Below are positions 62,022-62,188 of a stretch of DNA of 64,000 nucleotides, piece by piece (the stretch's first letter is position 1; the number at the start of each line of letters is the position of its first letter). The notes beneath the pieces were generated by a model. That model was not told the DNA's origin and searched no databases. It saw only the letters and a list, made by a program, of their open reading frames with translations. The stretch lies in the NCBI RefSeq assembly GCF_030013595.1, contig NZ_CP122768.1. The stretch is one strand, 5' to 3'. Both the position numbers and the translations under genes were made by a program. This DNA comes from Escherichia coli. Lineage in GTDB: Bacteria > Pseudomonadota > Gammaproteobacteria > Enterobacterales > Enterobacteriaceae.

Positions 62022-62188
62022 AACGCCTGTGCGGTGAACTCAGGTTCCGGGGAAATAGTGTCCATCATTGTAATGGACACTATCATGGGAAATGGCTCTG
62101 TCACATCAACAACTACAGTTGCTGACCAGCCGGATGGATGATTTTTTCGCAACCAGAAGACGCTGCCTCCGATCCGGCTTACAACAAG

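Follow-up and report, generated by a model that had tools for sequence, protein, structure and literature searches.

The window analysed here is a 64-kb stretch of Escherichia coli chromosome that carries emtA, ldcA, cvrA (plus strand, 58358-60094), an LRR gene, dadX and dadA. The LRR gene (60585-62021, plus strand) encodes a protein of 478 aa, ends with a TAG codon at 62019-62021 and is convergent with dadX, the gene for the catabolic alanine racemase (62189-63259, minus strand). The LRR protein contains an LRR domain of the YopM/SlrP/SspH/IpaH type (PDB E-values of 1e-27 to 1e-18), lacks a NEL ligase domain and has an acidic, repetitive, coiled-coil-like C-terminus (EKLEKLEDLDDL...). Its homologues are limited to E. 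coli and Shigella, where they always lie between cvrA and dadX, bar a few distant LRR/NEL proteins with no more than 34% identity over part of the query. LRR alleles encode proteins of 437-480 aa that diverge by up to 23%, with flanking DNA that is about 95-97% identical, and the gene seems highly polymorphic and uncharacterised. Upstream, a minus-strand ORF at 59966-60196 lies antisense to the cvrA 3' end and corresponds to ymgM, a small ORF of K-12 (Pfam PF23693; PMC6001520), the N-terminus in the window being unlike that of the K-12 version as a result of the inversion and deletion in the K-12 allele.

The spacer between the LRR gene and dadX is 167 nt long (62022-62188) and contains three stem-loops, of which the hairpin considered here (62055-62083) is the nearest to the LRR gene. 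It has a perfect 11-bp stem, with arms ATAGTGTCCAT (62055-62065) and ATGGACACTAT (62073-62083), a 7-nt loop, CATTGTA (62066-62072), and the flanks GGGGAA and CATGGG; four of the 11 pairs are G-C. A preliminary description had reported a 9-bp stem, agtgtccat-cattgta-atggacact, and this is indeed present at 62057-62081, where it gains two further pairs to reach 11 bp. The start that was given for the element, 62055, stands, but the end at 62090 does not, the hairpin closing at 62083 and the remainder being flank. The distance from the LRR stop codon to the 9-bp stem is 35 nt, as had been claimed, and is 33 nt to the 11-bp stem, whilst the dadX stop codon lies 105 nt from the hairpin. Further along the spacer there is a second, small stem-loop (62106-62125, TCAACAAC-TACA-GTTGCTGA) and a third that is long and imperfect and adjoins dadX (62128-62179). 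The outer arms of this dadX-proximal hairpin, AGCCGGAT...ATCCGGCT, are like those of REP or palindromic units (GCCGGAT...ATCCGGC). Two small ORFs near the hairpin were rejected because their reading frames are unconserved, one of 76 aa that runs over it on the minus strand (61922-62152) and one of 18 codons, read by eye, on the plus strand from 62085; in one allele an indel falls across the stop.

The hairpin is not a chance match. Of perfect hairpins with a 3-10 nt loop, the 64-kb window has five in which the stem is 11 bp or longer, whereas 40 dinucleotide-preserving shuffles of the window average 0.075; with the minimum stem lowered to 9 bp, the two values are 14 and 2.25. Folded as a 41-mer, the RNA of the plus (LRR) strand has a free energy of -14.3 kcal/mol (z -3.5) and that of the minus (dadX) strand -17.6 kcal/mol (z -6.1), the minus-strand stem reaching 14 pairs through three G·U pairs, two of them within the loop and the third outside. 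When the entire spacer is folded and compared with shuffles, the z-scores are -3.5 for the dadX strand and -1.5 for the LRR strand. The lack of a T-run after the hairpin on the plus strand, already remarked on in the preliminary description, is borne out by the downstream letters, CATGGGAAATGG. A U-tract, taken as at least five U in the 8 nt directly after the stem, is absent from both strands, the plus-strand tail being CAUGGGAA and the minus-strand tail UUCCCCGG; the minus strand offers only UUCCCC, or AUUUCC if counted after the 9-bp stem. The hairpin went uncalled on both strands in a consensus terminator scan, a promoter scan found no promoter-like site beside it, and a permissive Rfam 15 scan of 59900-62400 gave three matches at chance level (E of 1 or more), none of them over the hairpin.

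The distribution of the hairpin differs greatly from that of the gene it follows. Across a set of 5426 complete E. coli genomes the 81-bp hairpin segment occurs in 4296 and an intact LRR gene (most of the 59900-62400 query being matched) in only 834, so that the hairpin lies inside a block that has outlasted loss of the LRR gene. The segment occurs at a median of one place per genome and at two at most, at least some of the doubles being matches split by an insertion sequence. Relative to the window, K-12/O157-type genomes match up to about 60152, carry an inverted copy of 60144-60242 and are homologous again from 61948; they lack 60243-61947, and what they retain (61948-62188) is the final ~74 bp of the LRR ORF together with the complete spacer and its three hairpins. 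The K-12/O157 allele is not a simple deletion, about 100 bp after cvrA being inverted (compared with L001, 742-842) and the next ~1.7 kb missing. In B2-type genomes, represented by EC958, the match runs up to 60101 and resumes at 62183, and in place of 60102-62182 there are 43 bp of unrelated sequence. This replacement (L002, 700-742) forms a REP-like hairpin, GCTGGATACGAC-GCTG-GTCGCATCCAGC; it and the neighbouring hairpin at 62128-62179 are the REP-like sequences at this locus.

It had been suggested that the hairpin might mark one edge of an inserted segment. Boundary alignment of the K-12 and B2 types places the homology breaks about 100 bp away: the K-12-type breakpoint (61948) is inside the LRR ORF, 107 bp upstream of the hairpin, and the B2-type breakpoint (62182/62183) is 99 bp downstream of it and 6 bp from the dadX stop codon. 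Since neither coincides with the hairpin, the idea of an insert edge fails. Judged by these alignments, the K-12 state is a deletion derivative and not an empty site, and the "inserted LRR segment" is better seen as a polymorphic locus with three states, namely the LRR gene intact, an internal deletion with a small inversion (K-12/O157), and replacement of the whole spacer (B2). Beyond E. coli, a scan for the stem pattern in one genome per species across 100,044 species gave 16 matches, approximately the chance number as estimated by hand, all in unrelated organisms and none at a dadX locus, and the hairpin is thus no part of a dispersed repeat. There was no Escherichia among the 16, the E. 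coli representative evidently being without the segment, as B2-type genomes are. Records labelled as plasmid matched the locus at 12 places with the 2.5-kb query and at eight with the hairpin segment.

The loops of palindromic units are insertion sites of IS1397, a member of the IS3 family. In E. coli M37H (NZ_CP092233.1; L032, 1077-2504) an IS3-family element of about 1.42 kb, with the ends TGAACTGCGCCCC...GGGGCGCAGTTCA, is inserted exactly in the loop of the hairpin, at a site equivalent to 62066-62072 of the window and with a 3-4 bp duplication of a T-run. The identical junction between element and loop was found in 30 of the 5426 E. coli genomes, from varied hosts, and all of the cases that were examined are K-12-type alleles without the LRR gene. 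In the O157:H7 strain Z1723 (L154) a different IS3-family element, which is annotated with an AL1L frameshift pseudoknot, lies in the cvrA-dadX spacer about 140 bp upstream of the hairpin and outside it.

K-12 retains the hairpin (MG1655 1240055-1240083), which makes published maps of RNA ends usable, although they describe a strain that has no LRR gene and hence no LRR transcript. Term-seq under three growth conditions lists no 3' end on either strand between 1240055 and 1240095 of MG1655 (PMC7815308). Under two of the three conditions, RNA of the dadX strand has a 3' end at 1240019/1240020 (Adams et al. 2021, PMC7815308, Supplementary file 1), equivalent to 62118-62119 on the minus strand of the window; this is 9-11 nt past the dadX-proximal hairpin (62128-62179) and 35 nt before the hairpin considered here in the direction of dadX transcription. 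As the end precedes the hairpin and none occurs at it, the hairpin is not the main end of dadX mRNA in K-12. Bicyclomycin data for K-12 reveal very strong Rho termination of dadX-strand transcription at 1240513, in a region where it runs antisense to cvrA, with a Rho score of 43 (PMC7815308), from which it follows that dadX-strand transcription beyond is strongly Rho-dependent, but the score compares 800-nt windows and is silent on whether polymerases cross the hairpin. The TERMITe supplements have no entry for dadX, cvrA or ymgM.

Variation in the stem was assessed from 24 spacer copies, comprising those of the window, K-12 and O157:H7, nine LRR alleles encoding proteins with 77-95% identity to that of the window, and 12 E. 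coli metagenome contigs, the last obtained by a scan with the 16-mer just upstream of the stem that otherwise produced mostly chance matches. The 24 copies yield 14 distinct rows and six hairpin haplotypes. A single stem position of the 22 is variable (the fifth of the 3' arm, which is A or G, eight of the 24 sequences having G, O157:H7 among them), compared with three of seven in the loop and 29 of 146 columns in the remaining spacer, for which the one-sided Fisher p of stem versus rest is 0.06. The consequences of the A-to-G change are quite different for the two strands, for on the LRR strand it gives a U·G pair at a cost of 0.6 kcal/mol (-13.7 vs -14.3 kcal/mol) and on the dadX strand a C·A mismatch at a cost of about 5 kcal/mol (-12.5 vs about -17.5 kcal/mol). 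Over all haplotypes the plus-strand fold ranges from -13.7 to -15.3 kcal/mol, and in all sampled LRR alleles the hairpin stands at the same distance after the stop codon. No compensatory two-sided change was seen in the 62055-62083 stem among the 24 sequences. When one-sided transitions in all three spacer hairpins are taken together, pairing is kept in six of seven on the LRR strand and in one of seven on the dadX strand, a split that is statistically weak (two-sided p about 0.13). The asymmetry in pairing is a hint that LRR-strand RNA may be the relevant molecule.

An important consideration is which known class of element, if any, the hairpin resembles. It shares with intrinsic (Rho-independent) terminators a stem-loop a few tens of nucleotides past a stop codon, but differs from them in having no U-tract on either strand and only four G-C pairs in 11, and in being uncalled by the consensus scan; on the missing U-tract and the lack of a K-12 RNA end at the hairpin in MG1655 Term-seq, this class was rejected. 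Stem-loops that position polymerase collisions between convergent genes have been documented (Wang, Watters, Ju and Liu, bioRxiv 10.1101/2022.10.23.513370), and the symmetric palindrome in a short convergent spacer, able to form a stem-loop from either direction, is similar to these collision sites and bidirectional terminators. Unlike bidirectional intrinsic terminators, however, the hairpin has no A-tract and U-tract flanks, is one of three hairpins in its spacer and shows no end signal in K-12. Assignment to the classical bidirectional terminators was therefore rejected for want of the A-tract and T-tract, in spite of the convergent position and a hairpin on both strands. As an extragenic palindrome at the 3' end of a gene, with an IS3-family element in its loop, the hairpin also recalls the REP or palindromic units (BIME), but it is single-copy per genome where these number hundreds, is unrelated to the GCCGGATG...CCGGC consensus and is A+T-richer. 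Copy number and consensus thus speak against a REP unit, and the stem pattern had no enteric matches elsewhere in the scan of one genome per species. Likeness to OxyR, CRP, Ter and dif motifs fails on inspection.

Its anatomy agrees with that of a further class. In E. coli stable stem-loops without U-tracts have been documented at the ends of Rho-dependent transcripts (Dar and Sorek, PMC6061677), where they are situated just after genes, Rho terminating further downstream and exonucleases trimming the transcript back to them. The hairpin resembles these protective stem-loops (PMC6061677) in its stability, the absence of a U-rich tract, its location shortly after a stop codon and the C-rich untranslated RNA downstream, and differs in that the sole mapped end in the spacer (K-12, dadX strand) follows another hairpin. 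In structure it matches a Rho-associated protective stem-loop, and it may at most be one more of that class.

The reading that is tentatively favoured here, with somewhat less than even confidence, is that the hairpin is a U-tract-less stem-loop in the 3' UTR of the LRR mRNA, stabilising or pausing where termination is Rho-dependent, and that it is a relic in K-12-type genomes. Of the two suggestions in the preliminary description, the one that thereby stays the more plausible is a Rho-dependent or RNA-stability element. Its role would be at the RNA level, and we infer an effect on RNA stability, pausing or termination. A stable stem-loop would not by itself terminate transcription efficiently, because the U-tract is missing, and polymerase travelling beyond it would produce C-rich untranslated RNA antisense to dadX, to be stopped there by Rho or by collision with RNA polymerase coming from dadX. 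LRR-strand RNA past the spacer is antisense to dadX and has more C than G from 62150 on (GC skew about -0.2), an excess that is as expected for Rho loading. The stem-loop could then act both as a pause site and as a barrier to 3'-to-5' exonucleases, and so set or stabilise the end of the mRNA, and in the ~3460 K-12/O157-type genomes in which the body of the LRR gene is deleted the hairpin would have been left as a relic. Against such a role in the LRR mRNA, two more hairpins stand before the Rho region and a trimming exonuclease would meet those first, the stem shows no covariation, K-12 Term-seq has no end at it on either strand, and the hairpin is dispensable, being absent in B2 and interrupted by an insertion sequence in 30 genomes, though in K-12-type alleles without the LRR gene wherever these were examined.

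The same observations of dispensability bear on the possibility that the hairpin has no present function and is a neutral palindrome, or the leftover of an older element, that has not yet eroded in the spacer. This is unlikely, if by no means far-fetched. It would accommodate the hairpin's absence from all B2-type genomes, its unchanged state in K-12-type genomes that no longer have the upstream gene and its interruption in 30 genomes, as well as the want of any RNA 3' end at the hairpin under three growth conditions in K-12; moreover, the changes in the stem are one-sided only, without covariation, and conservation of the stem is barely above that of the rest of the spacer (p = 0.06). It accounts less readily for a perfect 11-bp stem that is expected just 0.075 times per 64 kb, which has stayed intact through six haplotypes though the loops differ at three positions, and in which the sole polymorphism still permits a wobble pair. 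Wobble-only variation of this kind would be expected if the stem were kept by selection on the LRR strand, as the mRNA-stabilising 3' end of a highly polymorphic effector-like gene, with the loop separately a favoured insertion point for an IS3-family element that targets palindrome loops, but this more elaborate combination is distinctly doubtful.

It is also necessary to ask whether the other strand, or both strands, might be the ones that matter, with the hairpin serving as a second or a two-way stop once dadAX transcripts have got past the dadX-proximal hairpin, or as a point of polymerase collision. The hairpin is the stronger on the minus strand (-17.6 kcal/mol, z -6.1, 14 pairs) and has a short tail after it there (AUUUCC/UUCCCC), that strand also gives the better fold for the spacer as a whole (z -3.5 vs -1.5), the position between convergent genes is that of bidirectional terminators, and the Rho score of 43 at 1240513 indicates that polymerases may run beyond dadX, though in 800-nt windows that do not resolve passage across the hairpin. 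However, the K-12 Term-seq end at 1240019/20 falls 35 nt before the hairpin, with no end listed at the hairpin or immediately beyond, the minus-strand stem loses ~5 kcal/mol to a C·A mismatch in the common A-to-G variant, the hairpin is without the flanking A-tract and U-tract that typify bidirectional terminators, and B2 genomes terminate dadX without the hairpin. A role on this strand or on both is improbable. Least credible, and indeed very improbable, is a site acting at the DNA level, whether a protein-binding palindrome, a place of recombination or attachment, one end of an acquired segment or a favoured target for insertion sequences. A perfect DNA palindrome with an IS3-family element exactly in its loop in 30 genomes is what such a site might look like, but both indel breakpoints are ~100 bp away, the hairpin is single-copy per genome, the 16 stem-pattern matches among 100,044 species are unrelated, near the chance number and absent from the dadX locus, no promoter-like site adjoins it, and the common A/G variant breaks the palindrome.

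The identity of the hairpin matters little beyond annotation, and the useful result is the negative one that it is no insertion boundary. Should its loop prove to be preferred by an IS3-family element of the kind described, the targets known for such an element would extend beyond REP units, to which the hairpin does not belong. If, as is tentatively favoured here, the 3' end of the LRR transcript is set by the hairpin, this would add another example to the U-tract-less protective hairpins, a class that is known genome-wide in E. coli.
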